Shown piece by piece: positions 11,481-24,209 of a stretch of DNA of 32,000 bases; the first letter of the stretch is position 1; each line of letters starts with the position of its first letter. The DNA comes from Haloferax volcanii DS2 (lineage in GTDB: Archaea > Halobacteriota > Halobacteria > Halobacteriales > Haloferacaceae). The notes beneath the pieces are model-generated. The model saw only the letters and a list, made by a program, of their open reading frames with translations, had not been told where the DNA came from and made no database searches. The translations under genes were made by a program, and so were the position numbers. The stretch is taken from positions 1,080,001-1,112,000 of the forward strand of contig NC_013967.1 in the NCBI RefSeq assembly GCF_000025685.1, in the 5' to 3' direction.

Positions 11481-11936
11481 TCACTCCGACTCGGCCATCG
11501 CCGACAGCCGAGCGACGTAGGAGAAACTGCGGACGTGGTCCTCTTCTGTCGGCGCGTCCTCGAAGTCGGCGGGGACGGTAAAGGAGACGACGCGCTCGCG
11601 AATCGTGTCGTGCGGCTCGTCGCCTATCCAGCCGATATCGCGGTAGTACGACGCCATCTCCAGCGCGCCGCGACCGCCGAGTCGCTCGACGAGGTGGACA
11701 CACCAGTCGAGCAGCACGCGCTCGGCCCGCGGCGTCCGCGGAATCTCGTCGAGGAACGGCTCGCCGTCCGAGGTGACAGCCGCGGTCGTCGCGAGGAGGC
11801 GCTCGTGAGCCACGTCGCTCCACGCCCGGTTCGTCGGTGCGTCGACCCAGTCGAACGACCGAGCGCCGGAGTTCCGTCTGAGTCCGGGCCCGGTCGGGCC
11901 GTCGGCGTCAGTCGGGTGACGTGACTCGCGCGGCAT
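11481..11936 (-). CDS. ArlD/E (FlaD/E, Arch_fla_DE) domain protein, stand-alone paralog
   Basis: 151 aa. RVLLDWCVHLVERLGGRGALEMASYYRDIGWIGDEPHDTIRERV...HVRSFSYVARLSAM aligns by eye to the C-terminal domain of ArlCE (22770-24209) and to the 15684-16214 product. Confidence 0.75.
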   Translation of the reverse strand: MPRESRHPTDADGPTGPGLRRNSGARSFDWVDAPTNRAWSDVAHERLLATTAAVTSDGEPFLDEIPRTPRAERVLLDWCVHLVERLGGRGALEMASYYRDIGWIGDEPHDTIRERVVSFTVPADFEDAPTEEDHVRSFSYVARLSAMAESE

Positions 11937-12258
11937 CTATCCCTGCGTGTGCGTCCATCCGAATTAAGCGTTCGGGCGAACGTCCGACATATGACAGCCA
12001 CACGAACGTTCAATCCGAGAGAGTGGGTGAACGGTTGAGCTGATAACTCCGAACGAGACTACGAGTCGAAAGCTGATTTGACGGGCGTGTCACTCGGCGT
12101 GGCGTGATTTCTCTCTTCGCTCCGTCTGCTATCAACTTTGATATATGGGGCGAATCGCTTAAGTTCCGTACCAGCTACACGTTTGATATCGCTCCGATGT
12201 GACACTCATCGGAAAGAACAGTTCCGAGAGAGTCACAGATGCGAGCCACGACCCACAT

Positions 12259-14385
12259 ATGACCAGCGTCGGGCAGTACCCACACGCGTACGCGCTGTTC
12301 GCCGCGGGCATCCTTGCGGGGGTCGTCACACTCGTTGTTCTCGGCCGGTTCCGACGCTACTCGCGGCGCGTCCGCCTCCCGTTTGCGCTGTTGACGCTCT
12401 CCGGGAGCATCTGGGCCACGGCGTACGGGTTCCTCTTCCTCCCGATGACGCCCAGCGCAGAACTGTTCTACGCGCAGTTGGCGTGGGCCGGCGCGGCCGT
12501 CATCCCGACGGTCTGGCTCGTCTTTGCGCTCGTCTACGCCGGCGAAGACCAGCTCCTCTCCACGCAGATGCTCGGCTTTCTGGCCGTCGAGCCCGCCGTC
12601 GCTATCGCCCTCAAGTTGACGAACGCCTCCCACGGGCTGCTCGGGTCGTCGCTCGGCCCCTGGCGGGCCATGCAGCCGGACCGGTTCGGCGCCCCCGGTG
12701 CGGACTTCCTCGGTCCGTTCGGCCCGGTCCTCGTCCTCGTCGCACACGTCGTTTACGGGTTCGGCGTCGCGGTCACCGGGGTGAGCGTCATCGCGAGAAC
12801 GTACCTCAAAAGCTCGAACATCCACCGGCGACAGGCCGGGTTTCTCTTCGTCGCCGGGGTGATTCCGCTCGCCGCGCTCGGCGGCGAGTTCTTCTTCCCG
12901 TTCCGCATCAATCCGGTCCCCGTCTCTATCGGCGTTAGCTCGGTCGTCGTGCTCTGGGCGCTCTTCAGACACCAACTGTTCGATATCACGCCCATCGCCC
13001 GCGACGCGATTCTCTCGGAGATGCGCGACGCCGTCGTCGTCCTCGACGAACAGGACCGAATCGTCGAATCGAACGGGGCCGCCTCGGAACTGTTAGCGCG
13101 GCCGGTCTCCGAGTGCGTCGGCGAGTCCGTCCTCGAAAGCGTTCGCGTGCCGTCCGAGGTTCAGGCGGTGTTAGCGGGTCGAGACAGGGCGCAAGCGGTC
13201 GTCGAAGACGACGGGACCAACCGCTATTTCGAGGTCCGTTCCGAACCGCTCGGCGACCAGACACGCGACCGGACGCGCTTGCTCGTCTTCTACGACGTGA
13301 CGGAACGCCGCCGCACCGAAGAGGAGTTCCGCGCGCTCATCGAGAACTCGCGGGACGTCATCACCGTCCTCAACGAGGACGGCGAACGGACCTACACGAG
13401 TCCCTCGATGACCGAGGTGCTCGGCTATCAGACCGACGCGCTCGTCGGTGAGCCGGTGCTCGACCTCGTCCACCCCGATGACAGAGACCGGGTCGCTGAC
13501 TGCTTCGACGAGGTGGTCTCCGGCGACCCGCCCGTGCGCGCCGAGTTCAGAGTCCGCCACAAAAACGGTACGTGGCGGCGGTTCGAGACGGTTGGCGTCA
13601 ACCTCCTTGATGACCCCGCCGTCGGCGGCGTCGTGTTGAACTCGCGGGACGTGACGAGTCGCCATCGCTACGAACAGCGCCTCCGAGTGTTGAATCGCGT
13701 CCTCCGGCACGACCTCAGAAACGACATGAACGTCATCCTCGGCCACGCCGACCTCCTCCTCGACGAACGCATCCCCGCCGAGTCGAAGGACCACGCCCGG
13801 ACGATAAAGCGGAAGGCGTCGTCGCTCGTCGAACTCGGCGAGCAGACCCGGCACATCGACACGACGCTCACCCGCGGGCCGTCCGGACTCGAACCCGTCG
13901 AGGTGGTCGAGCGCATCGAGGCGCAGTTAGACGACATCGAGTCCGACTACCCCGAGGCAATCGTCCACCGGAACCTCCCCGACAAGATGTGGGTCACCGC
14001 GGACGACCTCATCGAATCGGCACTCAAACACCTCATCGACAACGCGCTCGAACACAACGACCGCGTCATCCCGGAGGTCGGCGTCACCGTCGAGCGGAGC
14101 GCGACCTCGAACGACTACGTCGAGATTCGAATCGCCGACAACGGGCCGGGCGTCCCCGACGCCGAACTCTCCGTCCTCGAATCGGGGACCGAGACGCCGC
14201 TCCAGCACATCAGCGGACTCGGCCTCTGGCTGGTCCAGTGGATAATCGACCGCTCGAACGGTCGGCTCCGGTTCACGGAGAACGAGCCGCGGGGGTCCGT
14301 CGCCATCGTCGGCCTCCGGAGCGCCGACCGAGCAGCCTCCGCCAGCGACGGCGGCACGATAACGGGCGAGTCGGAGACGGACTGA
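12259..14385 (+). CDS. Sensor histidine kinase: N-terminal multi-TM (7TM-type) domain, two PAS domains, HisKA/HATPase_c
   Basis: About 260 aa of hydrophobic helices, then two PAS-like segments (including RAEFRVRHKNGTWRRFETVGVNLLDD). H-box RVLRHDLRNDMNVILGHADLL, N-box DNALEHN, G1 DNGPGV, G2 GLGLWL. ATG 12259 is preferred over GTG 12199. Confidence 0.9.
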   Translation: MTSVGQYPHAYALFAAGILAGVVTLVVLGRFRRYSRRVRLPFALLTLSGSIWATAYGFLFLPMTPSAELFYAQLAWAGAAVIPTVWLVFALVYAGEDQLLSTQMLGFLAVEPAVAIALKLTNASHGLLGSSLGPWRAMQPDRFGAPGADFLGPFGPVLVLVAHVVYGFGVAVTGVSVIARTYLKSSNIHRRQAGFLFVAGVIPLAALGGEFFFPFRINPVPVSIGVSSVVVLWALFRHQLFDITPIARDAILSEMRDAVVVLDEQDRIVESNGAASELLARPVSECVGESVLESVRVPSEVQAVLAGRDRAQAVVEDDGTNRYFEVRSEPLGDQTRDRTRLLVFYDVTERRRTEEEFRALIENSRDVITVLNEDGERTYTSPSMTEVLGYQTDALVGEPVLDLVHPDDRDRVADCFDEVVSGDPPVRAEFRVRHKNGTWRRFETVGVNLLDDPAVGGVVLNSRDVTSRHRYEQRLRVLNRVLRHDLRNDMNVILGHADLLLDERIPAESKDHARTIKRKASSLVELGEQTRHIDTTLTRGPSGLEPVEVVERIEAQLDDIESDYPEAIVHRNLPDKMWVTADDLIESALKHLIDNALEHNDRVIPEVGVTVERSATSNDYVEIRIADNGPGVPDAELSVLESGTETPLQHISGLGLWLVQWIIDRSNGRLRFTENEPRGSVAIVGLRSADRAASASDGGTITGESETD

Positions 14386-14483
14386 GAGACGGGCTGAGCC
14401 GCGCAGTAATCGAGTCGCATGATCGACGTGTCAAAGCCGAAACAGAGAACGAGACAACGAGCCGACCCGAGAGCCGAGCGTGT

Positions 14484-15581
14484 TCAGGTCGCGTTTCGGT
14501 CCCGGAGCCGCACCGCGAGCCTGTGTGCGCCCGCGGCCGCGGCGGTCGTCGGGTCGTCGGGGACGACCACGTCTACGGGACGGTCGAGCTCCGCGGCGAG
14601 GCGTGATTCGAGTTCTGCGACCAAGCCGGGGATGCACGCCATCCCGCCGGTGACGACCAGCGGGCGTGCGCGAGCGAGCTGATAGGTCTTCATGTGCGAA
14701 CTCGCCAGCCGCGAGAAGAAGTCGCTGAGCTCTGTGACCGCGTCGTCGAGGTAGTCGTCCAGCGGCTCCATCACGCCCCGTTCGACGGTGAACTCGTGGA
14801 CGCCGTCGCCGCCGTCTCCGTCCCCGCGTTCGACCGCGTCGGTGAAGGGTTCGAACCCGCCGAAGTCGGCGTGGGTTTCCTTGTACTCGCGGGCGGTGTC
14901 GGGGTCGATGGTCGCGCGCCCCTCGGTCTCGGCTTCGACCGCCTCGGCGATGCGCCGGTCGACGCGGTCGCCGGACACCTCTGCGGAGACGAACGGGAGC
15001 AACCGCGTTCCGTGTCGGTACGCGCACGCTTCGAGGTTCGTCGGGCCGAGGTCGAGGGCGACGAACACCTCGTCGACCGCCTCGATTCCGTCGCCGAGCG
15101 CCGGAATCGACGCGCACAGCGATTCCGGGAGCCCTCGCGTGAGCGTCCCCCCGAGGCCGCACTCACCGACTGCGGTGCCGAAGTTCGCGAGGCCGACCCT
15201 GTCGTCGACGGTCGGCATCGCGTAGACGACGGCGCTTTCGGCCGGGAGGTCGTGTCGCTCGCAGAGTTCGCGGACGAACCGCTCGAACAACTCGGCGTCG
15301 CGGGCGGTCGCGGGCACGCCCGAGCGAAGCATGAACTCCGCTCGGTCACCGGACCGCCGGACCGCCCCCTCGTCGTCGCTGACGCGTTCGTCGCCGGGGA
15401 GCGCGTCTTCGCCGTCGACCAGACACGAAGGGACCTGAACGGTCGTCGCCGCGTCGCCGTCGTCGAAGACGAGCGTCGTTCGGGCGCTCCCGAACTTGAC
15501 GCCGACGGCGGTCGGAGCGTCGCGCTCGCCGGACTCGGGCGTCGCGTCAGTGCCGTTGGCCGTGGCTGCGTCGTTCGTCAT
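14484..15581 (-). CDS. Divergent actin/MreB/PilM-like (ASKHA-fold) ATPase-family protein
   Basis: 365 aa with five ASKHA signatures in order: AVGVKFGSARTTLVF (aa ~25-39), AVVYAMPTVDD (~117-127), FVALDLGPTNLEA (~173-185), LVVTGGMACIPGLVAEL (~308-324), TTAAAAGAHRLA (~345-356). Coding is confident; the fold assignment is by eye only. Confidence 0.75.
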   Translation of the reverse strand: MTNDAATANGTDATPESGERDAPTAVGVKFGSARTTLVFDDGDAATTVQVPSCLVDGEDALPGDERVSDDEGAVRRSGDRAEFMLRSGVPATARDAELFERFVRELCERHDLPAESAVVYAMPTVDDRVGLANFGTAVGECGLGGTLTRGLPESLCASIPALGDGIEAVDEVFVALDLGPTNLEACAYRHGTRLLPFVSAEVSGDRVDRRIAEAVEAETEGRATIDPDTAREYKETHADFGGFEPFTDAVERGDGDGGDGVHEFTVERGVMEPLDDYLDDAVTELSDFFSRLASSHMKTYQLARARPLVVTGGMACIPGLVAELESRLAAELDRPVDVVVPDDPTTAAAAGAHRLAVRLRDRNAT

Positions 15582-15683
15582 ACGGTATCAACTCGATTCG
15601 GACTCGGCGGGGTGGTTCGCGCAGTCATGGGATACACTCGGTTGTCGGAAGGAGAGACCGTGTTCGAGACCCGGCGGTCGGCG

Positions 15684-16214
15684 TCACACCATCGAGGAGA
15701 GGCGGGCGACGTAGACCAGGCTCAGCAGGTGGTCGTCGACGTCGAGGTCGGTCGGTTCGTCGACGTCGGCGGAGAAGCCGAGGAGATAGTCCCGGAGCGT
15801 CTCCTCGACGTCCGGCGTGACCCAGCCGACCGTCTGGTAGTACCGGAGGGCGTCCATCGCCCGCTTGAACCCGCTTTTGAGGACGAGGAACTCCAGCCAG
15901 TCGAAGACGACGCGCTCCGCGCCGTACTTGTCCGGCAGCGAGCGGAGATACGGCTTTTCGACGCCGTCTTCCTCGCCGCGGGACTGGTGGACGAGCAGGT
16001 GTTCGAGTTGGCTCGACCGGAGCGCCTCGGACGCCTCCTGTCGGCTCCGGTCGAAAAGCGGGTTATCGAACCGGAACGGTCCGCGGTCGTCGAACCGGCC
16101 GTCGTCGAACCGGCCGTCGTCGAATCTACCGTCGCCGTTCCGTCTGGCTCGTGGTGCGTCACGCGCGATACGTCGAAGTTCGTCTGGGTCGTATTCGTCC
16201 GGGTCCAGGTACAT
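15684..16214 (-). CDS. ArlD/E (FlaD/E, Arch_fla_DE) domain protein with N-terminal (GRFDD)3 repeat
   Basis: 176 aa. RVVFDWLEFLVLKSGFKRAMDALRYYQTVGWVTPDVEETLRDYL...HLLSLVYVARLSSM matches the ArlD/E domain. The N-terminal region reads NGDGRFDDGRFDDGRFDDRGPFRFDNPLFD. Confidence 0.8.
   Translation of the reverse strand: MYLDPDEYDPDELRRIARDAPRARRNGDGRFDDGRFDDGRFDDRGPFRFDNPLFDRSRQEASEALRSSQLEHLLVHQSRGEEDGVEKPYLRSLPDKYGAERVVFDWLEFLVLKSGFKRAMDALRYYQTVGWVTPDVEETLRDYLLGFSADVDEPTDLDVDDHLLSLVYVARLSSMV
16086..16130 (-). repeat. 15-bp tandem repeat x3 (plus degenerate flanking copies), coding for GRFDD units
   Basis: gtcgtcgaaccggcc at 16086-16100 and 16101-16115, and gtcgtcgaatctacc at 16116-16130. In frame, on the minus strand of the 15684-16214 CDS. 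Confidence 0.9.
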
Positions 16215-16506
16215 GGGTCACCTCGTTCAGGACGGCACGAATCCCCTGAGTCCCCCGACTCGGGGCGGCGGAGCACGCAGCGCGCTGTCCGCGATGTCAC
16301 ACGCGATATCGTACCGTGTCGGTGAAAGCATTCGAAGGAGGCGACATAAATCTATTCGAGACATTATCACTCGTGATACCTCGATGTGCGGGCGCTCGAA
16401 CTCGGTCGTCGTCATTCGACAGTCGGTGTCGTCGGTCACCAAACGATGAGTGTGGGTTCGTTCCAACACCGTCGCACCGAGACCGAGGGACAAGGAGCCG
16501 AACCGC

Positions 16507-17016
16507 TCAGAGAACGTGAGTGCCGCTCTTCGCGCTTCGCACGCGGAGGTCGCCGGTCTCGCTGTCGAGTTCCAGCGAACGGCCGTGGGAGCCGCCGACG
16601 TCCTCGGCGACGACGTCGATGCCGAACCCGTCGAGCGTCGTTCGCGTCGCGGCGACGTTTCGGTCGCCGATACTGCCGTCGCCGTCGGCCGAGGTGAAGT
16701 CGAACATCGTGCTTCCCCCGGCGATTTTGGCGACGATTCGGTCGGTGTCCGCGCCGACTGCCTGCATCTCTGCGATCAGGAGTTCGACGCCGGTGTCGAC
16801 GAACTTCGCCGGCTCGCTGCCGTCATCCGCCTCCGGAAGCATCGCGTGTGCGAGCCCCGAGACGCCGGTCTCGGGGTCGTACAGCGCGACGCCGATACAG
16901 GAACCGAGACCGCTCGTCGTCAGCGTGCTCTCGTCGCTGGAGACGGCGAAGTCGGCGATTCCGACCTTGATTCGGCCGGAGCGGGCCGCGGGCGTGTCCG
17001 TGGTGTAAACTTGCAT
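16507..17016 (-). CDS. cheD: Chemoreceptor glutamine deamidase CheD
   Basis: 169 aa. GLGSCIGVALYD (catalytic Cys), GLAHAMLP (His) and KIAGGSTMF are typical CheD motifs. Confidence 0.92.
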   Translation of the reverse strand: MQVYTTDTPAARSGRIKVGIADFAVSSDESTLTTSGLGSCIGVALYDPETGVSGLAHAMLPEADDGSEPAKFVDTGVELLIAEMQAVGADTDRIVAKIAGGSTMFDFTSADGDGSIGDRNVAATRTTLDGFGIDVVAEDVGGSHGRSLELDSETGDLRVRSAKSGTHVL

Positions 17017-17037
17017 TGAGATTCCTCTACGGAGGGG

Positions 17038-18225
17038 TCACGCGGCGGGCGAGAGTTGCTTGAGCGCCTTGCGCAGTTCCGTCTCGTCGGGGAGCGCGTA
17101 GATATCGCAGGTGAACTCGTCGTCGTCCGTTCGAATAGTCGAGTCGATGAGGAACGCGTACTCTTGGGACTGCGCGAGGTCGGTCGCGAGCGGGTCGATG
17201 ATGGCCGACCCGATGTCGTGGACGTGCTTCGGCGGCGAGATGTCGATGGTCGTTTCGAGCGCGTTCGCCCAGCCGTCGAGGAAGCCGGAGGTCGTGATGT
17301 TCCCGATTTCCTGAATCGCGCTCTGGCGCATCGCCTCGTCGCCCTCCATGCCCGGCAGGAGGCTGCTGGCGATGTTCTCGGCCGACGGCTCGTCGAAGAG
17401 GATAGCGATGTAGCCGCTCGGCGTCCCGCTGAACTCCAAGACGACGCCGCGTCGAACCGCGTCGGTCAGCGACATCGGCACGCCCTCGATGGGGACGAAG
17501 CTCAGCCGACTCACCTCGACGGTCGTGTCGATGCCCGTCATCGCGGTGATGTCCTCGGACGCCTGGGTCGCGCCGTCGTTTATCATCTCGGAGAAGGCGG
17601 CGAACGACTCGACCGGGAGCGCGCCGTCGTCGCCGCTCGCCTCGACGATGGTCCCGATGGACGAGGCGGTCGGCACCATGTACAGGTCGAACTCGATGGC
17701 GTTGTCCGCGGCCTCCAACTGGTTGCGGAAGACGAGGACGTGCTCGTCGTCGCCGCCGTTTTCGAACCCCTCGGCGTCGACGCGGTCGAGCGGGCCGTCG
17801 TTCTCGTCGTCGACGTAGGTCGGTGTCGTGATGTCGACGGTGGTGTCGAGGTAGTCGGCCCAGCCGTCGATGAAACCGCCGAGCATGATGTTCGCGACCT
17901 CTTTGAGGCTACTCTCAGCGAGTTCGCCGTCGGCGTCGGTGGCGTCGATGCCCGGCATCAACGCGTCGACCAACCGCTCTGCGGACTCGGGCGAGAACGC
18001 CAACACGGTGTGGCCGTCTAAGCCGCCCGAAAAGCCGATGTGGACGCTCACGAGGTCGCGCTCGGCGAACTCGTTTTCCACGTCCGACTTCGTCCCGAGT
18101 TCGACCTTGGTGACGTTGACGTACGTGTCGATGCCCGCGAGCGTGGTCAGCGAACCGGCGGCTTTCTCCGCGCCCGAGTGGGCGAGCCGACTGAACGTGC
18201 GGAGCGACCGGACGTCGAGATTCAT
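17038..18225 (-). CDS. cheC: CheY-P phosphatase CheC, duplicated CheC-CheC architecture
   Basis: 395 aa from ATG 18225. Two internally repeated halves (AAGSLTTLAGIDTYVNVTKVEL... and ASEDITAMTGIDTTVEVSRLSF...) contain EVANIMLGGFIDGWA and EIGNITTSGFLDGWA CheC-type motifs. ATGA overlap with the cheY stop. Confidence 0.9.
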   Translation of the reverse strand: MNLDVRSLRTFSRLAHSGAEKAAGSLTTLAGIDTYVNVTKVELGTKSDVENEFAERDLVSVHIGFSGGLDGHTVLAFSPESAERLVDALMPGIDATDADGELAESSLKEVANIMLGGFIDGWADYLDTTVDITTPTYVDDENDGPLDRVDAEGFENGGDDEHVLVFRNQLEAADNAIEFDLYMVPTASSIGTIVEASGDDGALPVESFAAFSEMINDGATQASEDITAMTGIDTTVEVSRLSFVPIEGVPMSLTDAVRRGVVLEFSGTPSGYIAILFDEPSAENIASSLLPGMEGDEAMRQSAIQEIGNITTSGFLDGWANALETTIDISPPKHVHDIGSAIIDPLATDLAQSQEYAFLIDSTIRTDDDEFTCDIYALPDETELRKALKQLSPAA

Positions 18226-18590
18226 GCCTCTGCCTGAATCACGTCGGCGATAGCCTGGAGCACGTTCGGCTTCTGGAACGGCTTCGTGATGTAGCCGTCC
18301 GCCCCCGCCTCGACCGCTTCGCGCATCTTTTCTTCCTGTCCGACCGACGTGCACATGATAACCGATGCGCCGGCGTCGAGCGACTTGATCTCGGACGTCG
18401 CTTCGATGCCGTTTCGAATCGGCATCACGACGTCCATCGTGACGACATCGGGTTCGAGTTCGCGGTAGAGTTCCACCGCTTCGACCCCGTTTTCGGCCTC
18501 GCCGACGACTTCGTGTTCACCCTCGAGGAGCTGTTTGAGGAGATTCCGCATGAACGCAGAGTCGTCCACGACCAGTACCTTGCTTGCCAT
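18222..18590 (-). CDS. cheY: Chemotaxis response regulator CheY
   Basis: 122 aa. MASKVLVVDDSAFMRNLL..., phospho-acceptor context DVVTMDVVMP, conserved T (CTS) and K (ITKPF). ggaggt lies just upstream of ATG 18590. Confidence 0.95.
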   Translation of the reverse strand: MASKVLVVDDSAFMRNLLKQLLEGEHEVVGEAENGVEAVELYRELEPDVVTMDVVMPIRNGIEATSEIKSLDAGASVIMCTSVGQEEKMREAVEAGADGYITKPFQKPNVLQAIADVIQAEA

Positions 18591-18738
18591 ACCTCCAGAT
18601 TTCCGAAAATCACACCATAAACCCTTCCTCCCCATTATCAAGGCTGATATGGTGTGTCGAGGAGGAACCACCCGCGTCGCGTCGTGCAGACCGCAGCAAT
18701 CGGGTTCCAACGCCCACCCGAACCGCGTCACCGACGCA

Positions 18739-19401
18739 TCAGCGTCGGCGCGGCGGGAACGACGCGCCGGTGTCTTCGACGGCGTCGAGGAGGTCGCCGA
18801 TGCTGTCGTCTCGGTCGAGTCCGTTGGCGGTCGCGAGCGCCTCGACGGCACGAACGGGATAGGTAACCCGCACCTCCGAGGCTAAAAGCAGGATGCCGAG
18901 CACCTCGTCGCGCGGGGTGTCGGCGTTGCCGACGGCGTCGGCGTACCACGAGAGAAACGAGTTGACGACTTCGGTCACGTCGTCGGAGACGGTCTCGTGG
19001 CGAGCGACGTTGCCGTCGACGAGCGCGGTGGTGACGAGCGCGTGGTCCGCGCGGACCGCTCCGACGCGCTCTGCGAGCAGGCGTCGAGCGAGCACGGCCC
19101 GTTTTTTCGGGTCTTTCGGGAGGACGAGTTCGGGAGCCGCGGCGTCCTCGCCGCGCTCGTCGTGCTCGTCGCCCTCGCCGGAGGTCTCCGTATCGGACCC
19201 TGTGGTCTCACCCGAATCGGAGGGCGGGCTCTCGTCGTCTGCCGCGTCGGCGGCCGGCGGCTTGGCCTCTCCGGTCGAGATGACGTACCGGCCCGTGTCG
19301 AGCGCCGCGACGTGCTCGTCGCGGCTGATATCGAGTTCGTCCGTCCCGACGACCCCCTGTTCTCGCTGGTGAGTGGGGGGACGTTCGTCCTCGTCGTCCA
19401 T
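18739..19401 (-). CDS. Hypothetical acidic protein (220 aa): disordered N-terminal half, helical C-terminal domain
   Basis: This is the only halophile-like part of the 514-aa ORF 18739-20283. It starts at ATG 19401 (MDDEDERPPTHQ...), with a minus-strand TATA-like attatatg ~26 nt upstream. No family recognised. Confidence 0.6.
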   Translation of the reverse strand: MDDEDERPPTHQREQGVVGTDELDISRDEHVAALDTGRYVISTGEAKPPAADAADDESPPSDSGETTGSDTETSGEGDEHDERGEDAAAPELVLPKDPKKRAVLARRLLAERVGAVRADHALVTTALVDGNVARHETVSDDVTEVVNSFLSWYADAVGNADTPRDEVLGILLLASEVRVTYPVRAVEALATANGLDRDDSIGDLLDAVEDTGASFPPRRR

Positions 19402-19872: not shown

Positions 19873-20085
19873 ACCGCTCCGACTCCGGACTCTTTTCTTA
19901 CGTTTTCTGAGACGAGTGCTCGCTGATCGCTCGCGTGAGCGTGCGGAGGAGTTTACGTATTGACGCACCGACCCTACGATATCAGTCTTGATAGTGAGGG
20001 CCGTAGCGTTATGTAGGACCTCTCCAAGTTGACGAGTGACGGTTCCCCGCTCCCCACCGAGTGTGGGACCAAACCCACGAAATCT

Positions 20086-22557: not shown

Positions 22558-22769
22558 CACGTTCGTCGCACAGAAATTCATAACCGCGAAAATATCGGGT
22601 CTGATAACGGGACGGGAACTTTCTTGTACCGACTTACGTACCTTGCACCAATGTTACCTGCTCCCCCGAGTGCGTCGGACCTCCCCGGCCGGTTCGCCGC
22701 TCGGCCGGGTGACAGGCCGTCGCTCGAACGAATCGCCCCGCAGGCGGTGCGGAGGTGCTCGCCGCGAGC

Positions 22770-24209
22770 ATGATGGAGTGGCAGAACGACGAAGACACGG
22801 CCGACACCGGGGACGAAACGGACACGGAAGAACAACATATGTCATCAGACGATGGACTTGGATTCGAGGAGGGAATCGACGACCTCTCCGACGAGTTTGG
22901 TGACTTCGGCGACGACCTCGACGACGGATTCGACGACGACGAATTCGGCGGATTCGGTGACGACAACAGCGAGGAACTCGCAGAGCTCGAAGATCGCGTC
23001 GGCGAACTCGAGAACGAAGTAAGCGCCATCTCGTCGGGGATGAACACCGTCCGCGAAGAGAACAAACAGATCGGTGAGACCGTCGAAGAGCTCGACGACA
23101 CGATTCGCAAACTGCTCGACATCTACGAGATGGTCACCCGCGGCATCAACCCGTTCGTCGACGACGCCCGCGAGATGGGCGGCCTCGACGGCGGCGGCGC
23201 GTTCGGCCTCTTCGAGGCGGAAGCCGAGGACGAAGAGTATCTCGACCCCGAGGTGGCGAACGCCGACGCCGAGTCGTTCTTCGACGACGACTTCGGCGAA
23301 CTCGACGCCGAGGAGGGCGCGAAAGAAGCGGAACTCGCCGCGGAGGACGAACTCGCGGAAGCGGAGCGCGAGAGCCCCGCGGACGTGCTCGACGACGAGG
23401 ACGACGAGCACGGCGAAGCCGGCGAAGCCGACGAGACCGACGACGCGGGCGGTGCGGGCGGCGCGAGCTTCGACGACCTCAAAGAACAGTACGAGGAGGG
23501 CGACGGCTGGGACGACGAGGACGACGCGGCGGCGGACGACGCCGAAACGGACCTCGACGACGCGGCGGTCGACCTCGAAGACGAGGACGACGACGCGCTC
23601 GACGACGCCGACCCGCTCGACTCCGAGACGGCGGACGACGCGGAGGAAGACGACGAACCGGGCGACGAGGTGTCCGACGAATCCGAGACCGACCCGGCCC
23701 CCGAGATCGAGGACGGCGAGCAGGACGCCGACGGCGACGTCCGCAAGACGCTCGACGAACTGGAGGCCGAGTACGCCACTGCGGCGGGAACCAAAGACGG
23801 ACTGTCGGACGACGGCGAGGACGGCGCGGTCGCGGAACCCGAGTCGTCCGCGTCGGTCGAGGAGTCCGGCGCCTACCTGGCGACGCTCCCGTCGAACTAC
23901 GTCTCCGAGGTGCTCGTCCTCGAGTGGGCCGAACACCTCGTCACGGTCGGCGGCGCGCTCGGCGCGTCGCGTGCGCTCCGCCAGTATCGGGAGCAGGACT
24001 GGATATCGCGCGCCGTCGAGAGCGAGCTGAACGCCCACGTCGGACAGATAGCGCCGTCGGTCGAAGACGCCGACGACCACGAACTCCGCATCGACGACCA
24101 CCAGACGAGCCTCGCGTACGTCTGCCGGCTTGCGGAGGACGTTCCGCGGGGACAGCTGTACGAGGAGTTGGTCGCCTACGGGGGGAGATTCGATGGGATT
24201 CGGTGTTAG
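22770..24209 (+). CDS. arlCE: Archaellum accessory protein ArlCE (FlaC-FlaD/E fusion) with a long poly-acidic linker
   Basis: The N-terminal coiled-coil FlaC-like segment is EELAELEDRVGELENEVSAISSGMNTVREENKQIGETVEELDDTIRKLLDIYEMVTRGINPF. The C-terminal ArlD/E domain is EVLVLEWAEHLVTVGG...YREQDWISRAVE...SLAYVCRLAE. The start is uncertain: GTG 22755, ATG 22770/22773 or ATG 22839. Confidence 0.85.
   Translation: MMEWQNDEDTADTGDETDTEEQHMSSDDGLGFEEGIDDLSDEFGDFGDDLDDGFDDDEFGGFGDDNSEELAELEDRVGELENEVSAISSGMNTVREENKQIGETVEELDDTIRKLLDIYEMVTRGINPFVDDAREMGGLDGGGAFGLFEAEAEDEEYLDPEVANADAESFFDDDFGELDAEEGAKEAELAAEDELAEAERESPADVLDDEDDEHGEAGEADETDDAGGAGGASFDDLKEQYEEGDGWDDEDDAAADDAETDLDDAAVDLEDEDDDALDDADPLDSETADDAEEDDEPGDEVSDESETDPAPEIEDGEQDADGDVRKTLDELEAEYATAAGTKDGLSDDGEDGAVAEPESSASVEESGAYLATLPSNYVSEVLVLEWAEHLVTVGGALGASRALRQYREQDWISRAVESELNAHVGQIAPSVEDADDHELRIDDHQTSLAYVCRLAEDVPRGQLYEELVAYGGRFDGIRC

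Follow-up and report, generated by a model that had tools for sequence, protein, structure and literature searches.

Conserved pairing of arlD with the gene for the actin-like protein salactin in haloarchaea, and a Haloferax-restricted ArlD paralogue

The left arm of the motility and chemotaxis cluster of Haloferax volcanii DS2 raises the question of why a gene for an actin-fold ATPase should lie between two genes that encode ArlD/E-type archaellum domains. The DNA considered here, referred to as the window, is a stretch of 32,000 nucleotides (GCF_000025685.1, NC_013967.1 positions 1,080,001-1,112,000) with a G+C content of 65% and numerous spurious open frames. The gene order at issue is arlD1 (HVO_1203, reverse strand), the salactin gene (HVO_1202, reverse strand), a convergent seven-transmembrane (7TM)-PAS histidine kinase gene (forward strand) and arlD2 (reverse strand). 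An earlier note on this DNA had read arlD1 and arlD2 as two extra genes supplying alternative adaptors to the motor switch, and had left the actin-like gene as a bystander. Comparison across haloarchaeal genomes gives a different picture: the conserved unit is arlD plus salactin, while the kinase and ArlD2 are lineage-limited additions.

Exactly three matches to PF04659 (Arch_fla_DE; Pfam gathering score 21 bits) are present in the whole genome, and all of them fall inside the window. ArlD2 (11481-11936, reverse strand, 151 amino acids (aa)) scores 73.8 bits over residues 58-145 in hmmscan, ArlD1 (15684-16214, reverse strand, 176 aa) scores 92.7 bits over residues 86-173, and ArlCE (22755-24209, forward strand), the first gene of the arlCE-F-G-H-I-J operon, combines a FlaC_arch match of 82.9 bits with a PF04659 match of 74.4 bits. 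The earlier note had assigned these same three proteins to the family and placed only ArlCE inside the arl operon; both points stand, as do its coordinates and domain calls, including the kinase and actin-fold gene in between and cheYCD alongside. Both small genes carry published names. HVO_1203 appears as 'Arl cluster protein ArlD' (PMC12091111), and the two ArlD homologs of H. volcanii were published at 35% identity (Li et al. 2020, Mol Microbiol, PMC7534055). Because the gene names fit and the two window proteins are likewise 35% identical, 15684-16214 is taken to be ArlD1, 14484-15581 to be HVO_1202 and 11481-11936 to be ArlD2, in keeping with the gene order.

HVO_1202 (14484-15581, reverse strand, 365 aa), listed as a 'conserved hypothetical protein' in a 2026 proteome paper, is a salactin orthologue and an actin-fold ATPase, with 487.9 bits to PF25229 (cut-off 27.1) and 444.5 bits to NF053533 (cut-off 400) over positions 1-335 of 335. 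It is single-copy in the H. volcanii genome, and the phosphate-1, phosphate-2 and adenosine motif columns (G27-T35, G179/T181 and T311-M314) are invariant among 19 orthologues, that of the window included. To our knowledge, dynamics have been observed for very few archaeal actins, salactin among them. Salactin of Halobacterium salinarum (VNG0153C; Zheng et al. 2023, mBio) assembles into filaments that are dynamically unstable and extend from polar foci, with monomers joining the filament end distal to the pole while the filaments remain pole-attached, and its only known phenotype is in DNA partitioning in low phosphate (PMC10746226). That paper names no polar anchor, mentions neither archaella nor ArlD, and describes 'poor synteny conservation' of salactin from a comparison of close relatives only. 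Among salactins, such filaments are known only for the Halobacterium protein. HVO_1202 belongs to the same family (PF25229, NF053533) but is more divergent: H. volcanii salactin and its closest relatives score 449-488 bits to PF25229 against 560-625 for most others, including other Haloferax, which suggests that this subgroup is evolving faster.

The survey covered 198 Halobacteria genomes, each at least 90% complete. Salactin is present in 100 of these (in two as a fragment or weak match only) and PF04659 in 159. For each full-length salactin gene the flanking 4 kb in both directions were taken (99 loci, and the window in addition), translated into six-frame open reading frames (ORFs) and scanned with an ArlD-domain hidden Markov model (HMM) constructed from the same dataset. 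Of 102 salactin genes, 81 are immediately preceded by an ArlD-domain gene on the same strand, corresponding to 81 of 98 genomes and 23 genera. Halobacterium-type salactin is not beside arlD, whereas in these 81 genomes salactin is the second gene of an arlD-salactin unit. By family, the pair is found in 55 of 56 cases in f1 (15/15 genera), 2 of 2 in f2, 24 of 37 in f4 (7/9 genera) and 0 of 7 in f3, the family with the Halobacterium-type layout. The arlD1-salactin unit is conserved in the Haloferacaceae, the Haloarculaceae and a third family.

The two genes often overlap, and their surroundings are not shared. From arlD stop to salactin start, 19 of the 81 pairs have a 4-bp overlap, 13 lie at 0-30 bp, 30 at 31-120 bp and 19 at more. 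When one locus per genus (23 genera) was compared over 4 kb on each side, ArlD and salactin alone were common to all, and the most widespread flanking gene cluster occurred in 6 of the 23. A second pass over named records, a set that overlaps the 198 genomes and is not an independent sample, recovered the pair in 75 of 79 assessable loci, in genera including Haloferax, Salinigranum, Halobellus, Halogeometricum, Haloplanus, Halohasta and Halorubrum, and further in Halobaculum, Haloarcula, Halorhabdus, Halapricum, Natronomonas and Halorientalis. All 98 salactin genomes carry PF04659, and salactin occurs in none of the 39 genomes without it, a distribution drawn from relatives that are not independent. 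The arlD-salactin pairing is new in that no mention of it was found in searchable papers, and the same holds for three findings described below: that the salactin-linked gene is the ordinary ArlD, that ArlD2 is restricted to one genus, and that an ArlD/E domain lies beside a MamK-like actin in two distant genomes.

Some individual loci depart from the simple pair. Two loci of one f4 genus (L034 and L039, genus g56) carry two tandem salactin paralogues, each preceded by a long ArlD-domain gene (460-500 aa); cheD-cheC lie upstream at a distance of a few kb. In Haloferax massiliensis (L127) about 1.1 kb separates the ArlD domain from salactin, compared with about 100 bp in other Haloferax, possibly through an insertion between the two genes. 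A 140-aa ORF upstream of f3 salactin was set aside as an apparent off-frame shadow cast by an opposite-strand gene.

The second question is whether the salactin-linked ArlD is an additional protein, as the description of two extra genes implied, or the ArlD of the motor. ArlD1 consists of an N-terminal motif, a variable linker that includes a (GRFDD)3 repeat, a long helix and the C-terminal ArlD/E domain. Salactin-linked ArlDs open with M-x-(I/L)-(N/D)-P-x-x-Y-D-x-x-E-L-R, which is present in ArlD1, and R14, Y8, D9 and P5 of this motif are invariant or nearly so among 37 sequences. The same motif opens the ArlD that is encoded directly upstream of arlCE in f3. A quick maximum-likelihood tree, weakly resolved and computed on 99 columns from 72 ArlD/E domains, puts the salactin-linked ArlDs of f1 and f4, the operon-encoded ArlD of f3, the stand-alone ArlD of family f6 and the unlinked ArlDs of f4 into one group, with a Shimodaira-Hasegawa-like approximate likelihood ratio test (SH-aLRT) value of 89, which is not strong, and the ArlCE C-termini apart from it. 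Furthermore, most f1 and f4 genomes have just two PF04659 genes, ArlCE and the salactin-linked ArlD, and in most Haloferacaceae and Haloarculaceae the latter is the sole stand-alone ArlD. Because of the shared motif, the tree grouping and the presence of only two PF04659 genes in most of these genomes, the salactin-linked gene is, on sequence grounds, an ordinary ArlD relocated out of the arl operon and no extra copy; 15684-16214 is the canonical, motility-essential ArlD.

ArlD is a standard polar marker of the H. volcanii archaellum motor. ArlD1-GFP forms polar foci, and its polar placement depends on CetZ1, MinD2 and MinD4 (PMC13644373). Deletion of arlD1 leaves cells without archaella; ArlD1 is required both for archaella and for CheF docking, and ArlD together with ArlCE is required for the location of CheF at the motor (PMC7534055). 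Within Haloferax, ArlD1 orthologues are 166-186 aa long with a linker of variable length, the (GRFDD)3 repeat of the window lying at 16086-16130 within the disordered linker; in Halogeometricum, Halopelagius and Halobellus-type genera the linker grows to give proteins of 280-366 aa. The N-terminal motif was considered as a salactin-specific binding peptide and rejected, as it is also present in the f3 operon ArlD and, in variant form, in f6, a family without salactin.

An AlphaFold2 model of ArlD1, built from the 37-sequence alignment, has a predicted local distance difference test (pLDDT) score of 79.5 overall and above 90 for residues 90-176. It predicts a short helix near the N-terminus (10-19), then a disordered linker, a second, long helix at 52-80 and, at the C-terminus, a compact domain of four helices. 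Conserved residues of the ArlD/E domain include W106, Y126, W131 and H162. Foldseek searches of the model against the PDB returned nothing at E≤0.001, a wide VIA-align search reached at most Z 5.3 (54 residues), a value inside the helical background, and the ArlD1 sequence gave only chance matches against the PDB (E about 0.1). As modelled, the ArlD/E fold would thus be one without a clear match among solved structures, and no fold is assigned to it.

At E≤1e-20 ArlD2 is found in 11 of 11 Haloferax genomes and in none of 187 other Halobacteria, it forms its own long-stemmed clade in the domain tree (SH-aLRT 97), and its N-terminus is without the canonical ArlD motif. It is accordingly classed, from its sequence, as a Haloferax-only paralogue and not a canonical ArlD. 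The synteny proposed for checking in the earlier note was borne out within the genus: ArlD2, kinase, salactin and ArlD1 all lie in the fetched locus of 10 of the 11 Haloferax genomes. In ten of them ArlD2 follows salactin on the same strand at a distance of about 2.2-2.6 kb downstream, separated from it by the convergent kinase, and in the eleventh (G132) it lies about 4 kb from salactin on the same contig and strand. Haloferax mucosum has a second salactin on another contig (L048 3471-5053, the same locus as L131, contig_4; 598 bits). Here an ArlD2-like gene lies 39 bp downstream, a kinase is absent and the upstream side carries no ArlD1-like gene. ArlD2 thus follows salactin rather than motor genes, which fits the absent motility phenotype: deletion of arlD2 left motility and directional movement at wild-type levels in a study that gave ArlD2 no function and is silent on the gene between arlD1 and arlD2 (PMC7534055).

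The kinase between salactin and arlD2 (12199-14385, forward strand) is an orphan membrane histidine kinase convergent with salactin, whose domains follow the order HisKA_7TM (147.5 bits), PAS, PAS (89 bits), HisKA (29.3 bits) and HATPase_c (50.3 bits). Its translation carries the H-box (RHDLRN) and DNGPG box of a histidine kinase, its start is likely the ATG at 12259, and no cognate response regulator was identified near it. A homologue is present downstream of salactin at 11 of 11 main Haloferax loci; genera g16 and g18 have one too, 1.6-2.4 kb downstream. ArlD2 is an addition limited to Haloferax, and the kinase one limited to Haloferax and a few related genera. Family f6, which lacks salactin, offers a second instance of ArlD next to a sensor kinase: at two loci (L110 3533-6874 and L111 3152-7015) a multi-PAS-GAF histidine kinase of 940-1060 aa comes a few bases after a stand-alone ArlD of canonical type.

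The pair also appears to share its expression. RNA-seq placed 'ArlD/HVO_1202' in one transcriptional unit that is up in a csmR deletion, and the CsmR-binding consensus was given as TATCA(N4)TGATA (PMC13286277). By pattern search, this consensus occurs exactly at four sites in the window, all predicted CsmR sites: in the divergent arlD2/kinase intergenic region (12130-12143) and upstream of arlD1 (16365-16378), cheY (18636-18649) and arlA1 (19980-19993). A copy with one mismatch lies upstream of arlCE (22593-22606). By chance, 0.1 matches would be expected in the window. All five copies fall in promoter-side intergenic regions of the motility cluster. The site at 12130 suggests that arlD2 and/or the kinase may belong to the CsmR regulon. 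A putative arlD1-salactin promoter is placed at 16346-16378 (reverse strand), where the CsmR consensus is followed by a TATA-like TTTAT at 16346-16350, and a direct reading of the 102-bp spacer between arlD1 and salactin (15582-15683, reverse strand) found no T-run terminator.

Is the association of an ArlD/E domain with an actin peculiar to haloarchaea? MamK-like actins were searched in 400 genomes of the phylum. In two of these, both from a distant family (37-42% G+C), the gene immediately after a MamK-like actin encodes a coiled-coil protein with an N-terminal PF04659 domain. These partners are 894 aa and at least 1327 aa long, their first 90 residues match PF04659 at 34.8 and 39.1 bits, and each is the only PF04659 match in its genome. 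No archaellin was found in either genome (completeness 100% and 97%). The arrangement resembles arlD-salactin in that an ArlD/E protein is encoded directly beside an actin-fold ATPase, but it differs in that the actin is MamK-like (372 bits to NF040964), the gene order is reversed and the partner is a coiled-coil protein of about 900 aa or longer. In a second group of 14 genomes, a MamK-like actin is paired with a coiled-coil protein without an ArlD/E domain.

The descriptive part of this account is solid: which genes these are, that the operon is conserved, that ArlD1 is an ArlD orthologue and that ArlD2 is restricted to one genus. What the linkage means is a separate matter. The reading favoured here, held tentatively at a probability of about 45%, is that ArlD/E proteins bind salactin and that ArlD1 roots its filaments at the base of the polar motor, as the gene linkage, the published polar localisation and the cross-lineage pairing would suggest. 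The ArlD/E domain would then be a partner module for actin-like filaments. ArlD1, sitting at the base of the polar archaellum motor and co-produced with salactin from a CsmR-type motility promoter, would tether or nucleate salactin filaments at the pole, which would explain why these grow out of polar foci. ArlD2, with neither the N-terminal motif nor a motility phenotype, could serve as a second, motor-independent salactin partner, and the adjacent kinase would be a lineage-specific addition.

Such an arrangement has precedents. In ParM/ParR/parC, AlfA/AlfB and MamK/MamJ the gene next to that of the actin-like ATPase, often within the same operon, encodes a small or coiled-coil partner by which the filament is coupled to a cellular structure. 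The arlD-salactin pair is like these in that the partner gene adjoins the actin-like ATPase gene, here known from gene linkage, but ArlD/E has no detectable sequence or fold in common with ParR, AlfB or MamJ, and the coupled structure would be the archaellum motor base. Several points weigh against a tethering role. Deletion of salactin in Halobacterium leaves motility normal (PMC10746226), and the two genes are non-adjacent in f3 and for 13 of 37 f4 salactin genes. As f6 has the N-terminal ArlD motif but no salactin, the motif is not salactin-specific. No ArlD-salactin fusion was found among the 81 pairs or among 18 longer homologues, the latter a low-sensitivity search. The 81 pairs may derive from one ancestral rearrangement and not from 81 independent events. 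Finally, three Halorubrum-type genomes (L100-L102, genus g2) keep cheY-C-D and arlCE-F-G-H-I-J and have neither a stand-alone arlD nor salactin; given that the arl operon is kept, arlD was lost with salactin and not retained with the operon. This co-loss was set aside as functional evidence, as one deletion removes both neighbours, and it says little about function; either ArlD is dispensable in these strains or they are non-motile.

The main rival holds that the linkage reflects co-regulation only, a single ancestral juxtaposition of arlD and salactin in the Haloferacaceae/Haloarculaceae having been kept as both products are wanted in the motile rod stage, with proteins that never touch and a salactin that only partitions DNA. 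This is possible, if on the whole rather unlikely. The low-phosphate partitioning phenotype and the normal motility without salactin agree with it, as do the unlinked genes of f3 and part of f4, the co-regulation of the whole HVO_1201-1225 cluster in any case, and the fact that one ancestral event could account for most of the distribution. However, flanking genes turn over completely while the pair stays, often with overlapping stop and start, and paralogue pairs recur both in Hfx. mucosum and as the tandem pairs of genus g56. Nor can co-regulation with motility explain why, in genomes that yielded no archaellin, the sole ArlD/E domain should be fused to a protein that partners another actin family. 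The linkage and phyletic data could also be read with the polarity reversed, so that salactin is a positioning or partitioning machine, comparable to MamK with magnetosomes, the ArlD motor complexes or polar cap are its cargo, and ArlD is a cargo adaptor and not an anchor. ParM/ParR and MamK/MamJ are established examples of an actin working with an adaptor, and ArlD1 does require CetZ1, MinD2 and MinD4 for its polar placement (PMC13644373), but the Halobacterium salactin deletion swims normally, and monomer addition at the pole-distal end of filaments that stay attached at the pole fits an anchor better than a moving cargo; this alternative is considered decidedly improbable.

The idea of the earlier note, that different inputs, for example from the 7TM-PAS kinase, reach the switch through ArlD1 and ArlD2 as alternative adaptors for CheF docking, is weakly supported and ranks as very unlikely because of the arlD2 deletion phenotype, wild-type motility and directional movement (PMC7534055), with which it conflicts. 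It can draw on the need for ArlD and ArlCE to bring CheF to the motor (PMC7534055), on the CsmR motif between arlD2 and the kinase, on the drop of arlD2 transcripts along with those of archaellum genes in biofilms and on the f6 stand-alone ArlD directly before a large PAS-GAF kinase. Yet ArlD1 is the single canonical ArlD and not an extra, ArlD2 is confined to one genus, and the kinase has neither a nearby response regulator nor a known tie to CheY.

If ArlD/E proteins do bind salactin, this would be the first molecular activity for the ArlD/E domain. The conserved operon in a genetically tractable model could then connect archaeal motility and cell polarity with the partitioning of chromosomes. 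A broader version, for the present unlikely, would make ArlD/E an ancient actin-filament-binding module, with ArlC/D/E linking the euryarchaeal motor to an actin-like cytoskeleton and haloarchaeal salactin rooted in motor bases via ArlD. The swimming organelle would in that case double as a polar organising centre for a chromosome-partitioning filament, and ArlD2 would act as its motor-free regulator.

Some observations concern neighbouring genes and more distant relatives. At one f4 locus (L117 6285-7676, genus g49) the gene that comes after an unlinked ArlD encodes a coiled-coil protein matching FlaC_arch weakly (31.6 bits) and may be a split ArlC-like gene. In family f11 (L207-L214, genus g104) the gene of a MamK-like actin (183-260 bits to NF040964) overlaps the beginning of that of its coiled-coil partner, a protein of 490-610 aa with an invariant N-terminal FTPNIYRKP motif; having no ArlD/E domain, these partners were ruled out. 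Within the window itself, cheD, cheC and cheY (16507-18851, reverse strand) lie directly upstream of arlD1 and correspond to HVO_1205, 1206 and 1207 (PMC12091111, PMC2841640), and the remainder comprises archaellins, arlCE-F-G-H-I-J and two cheF genes.

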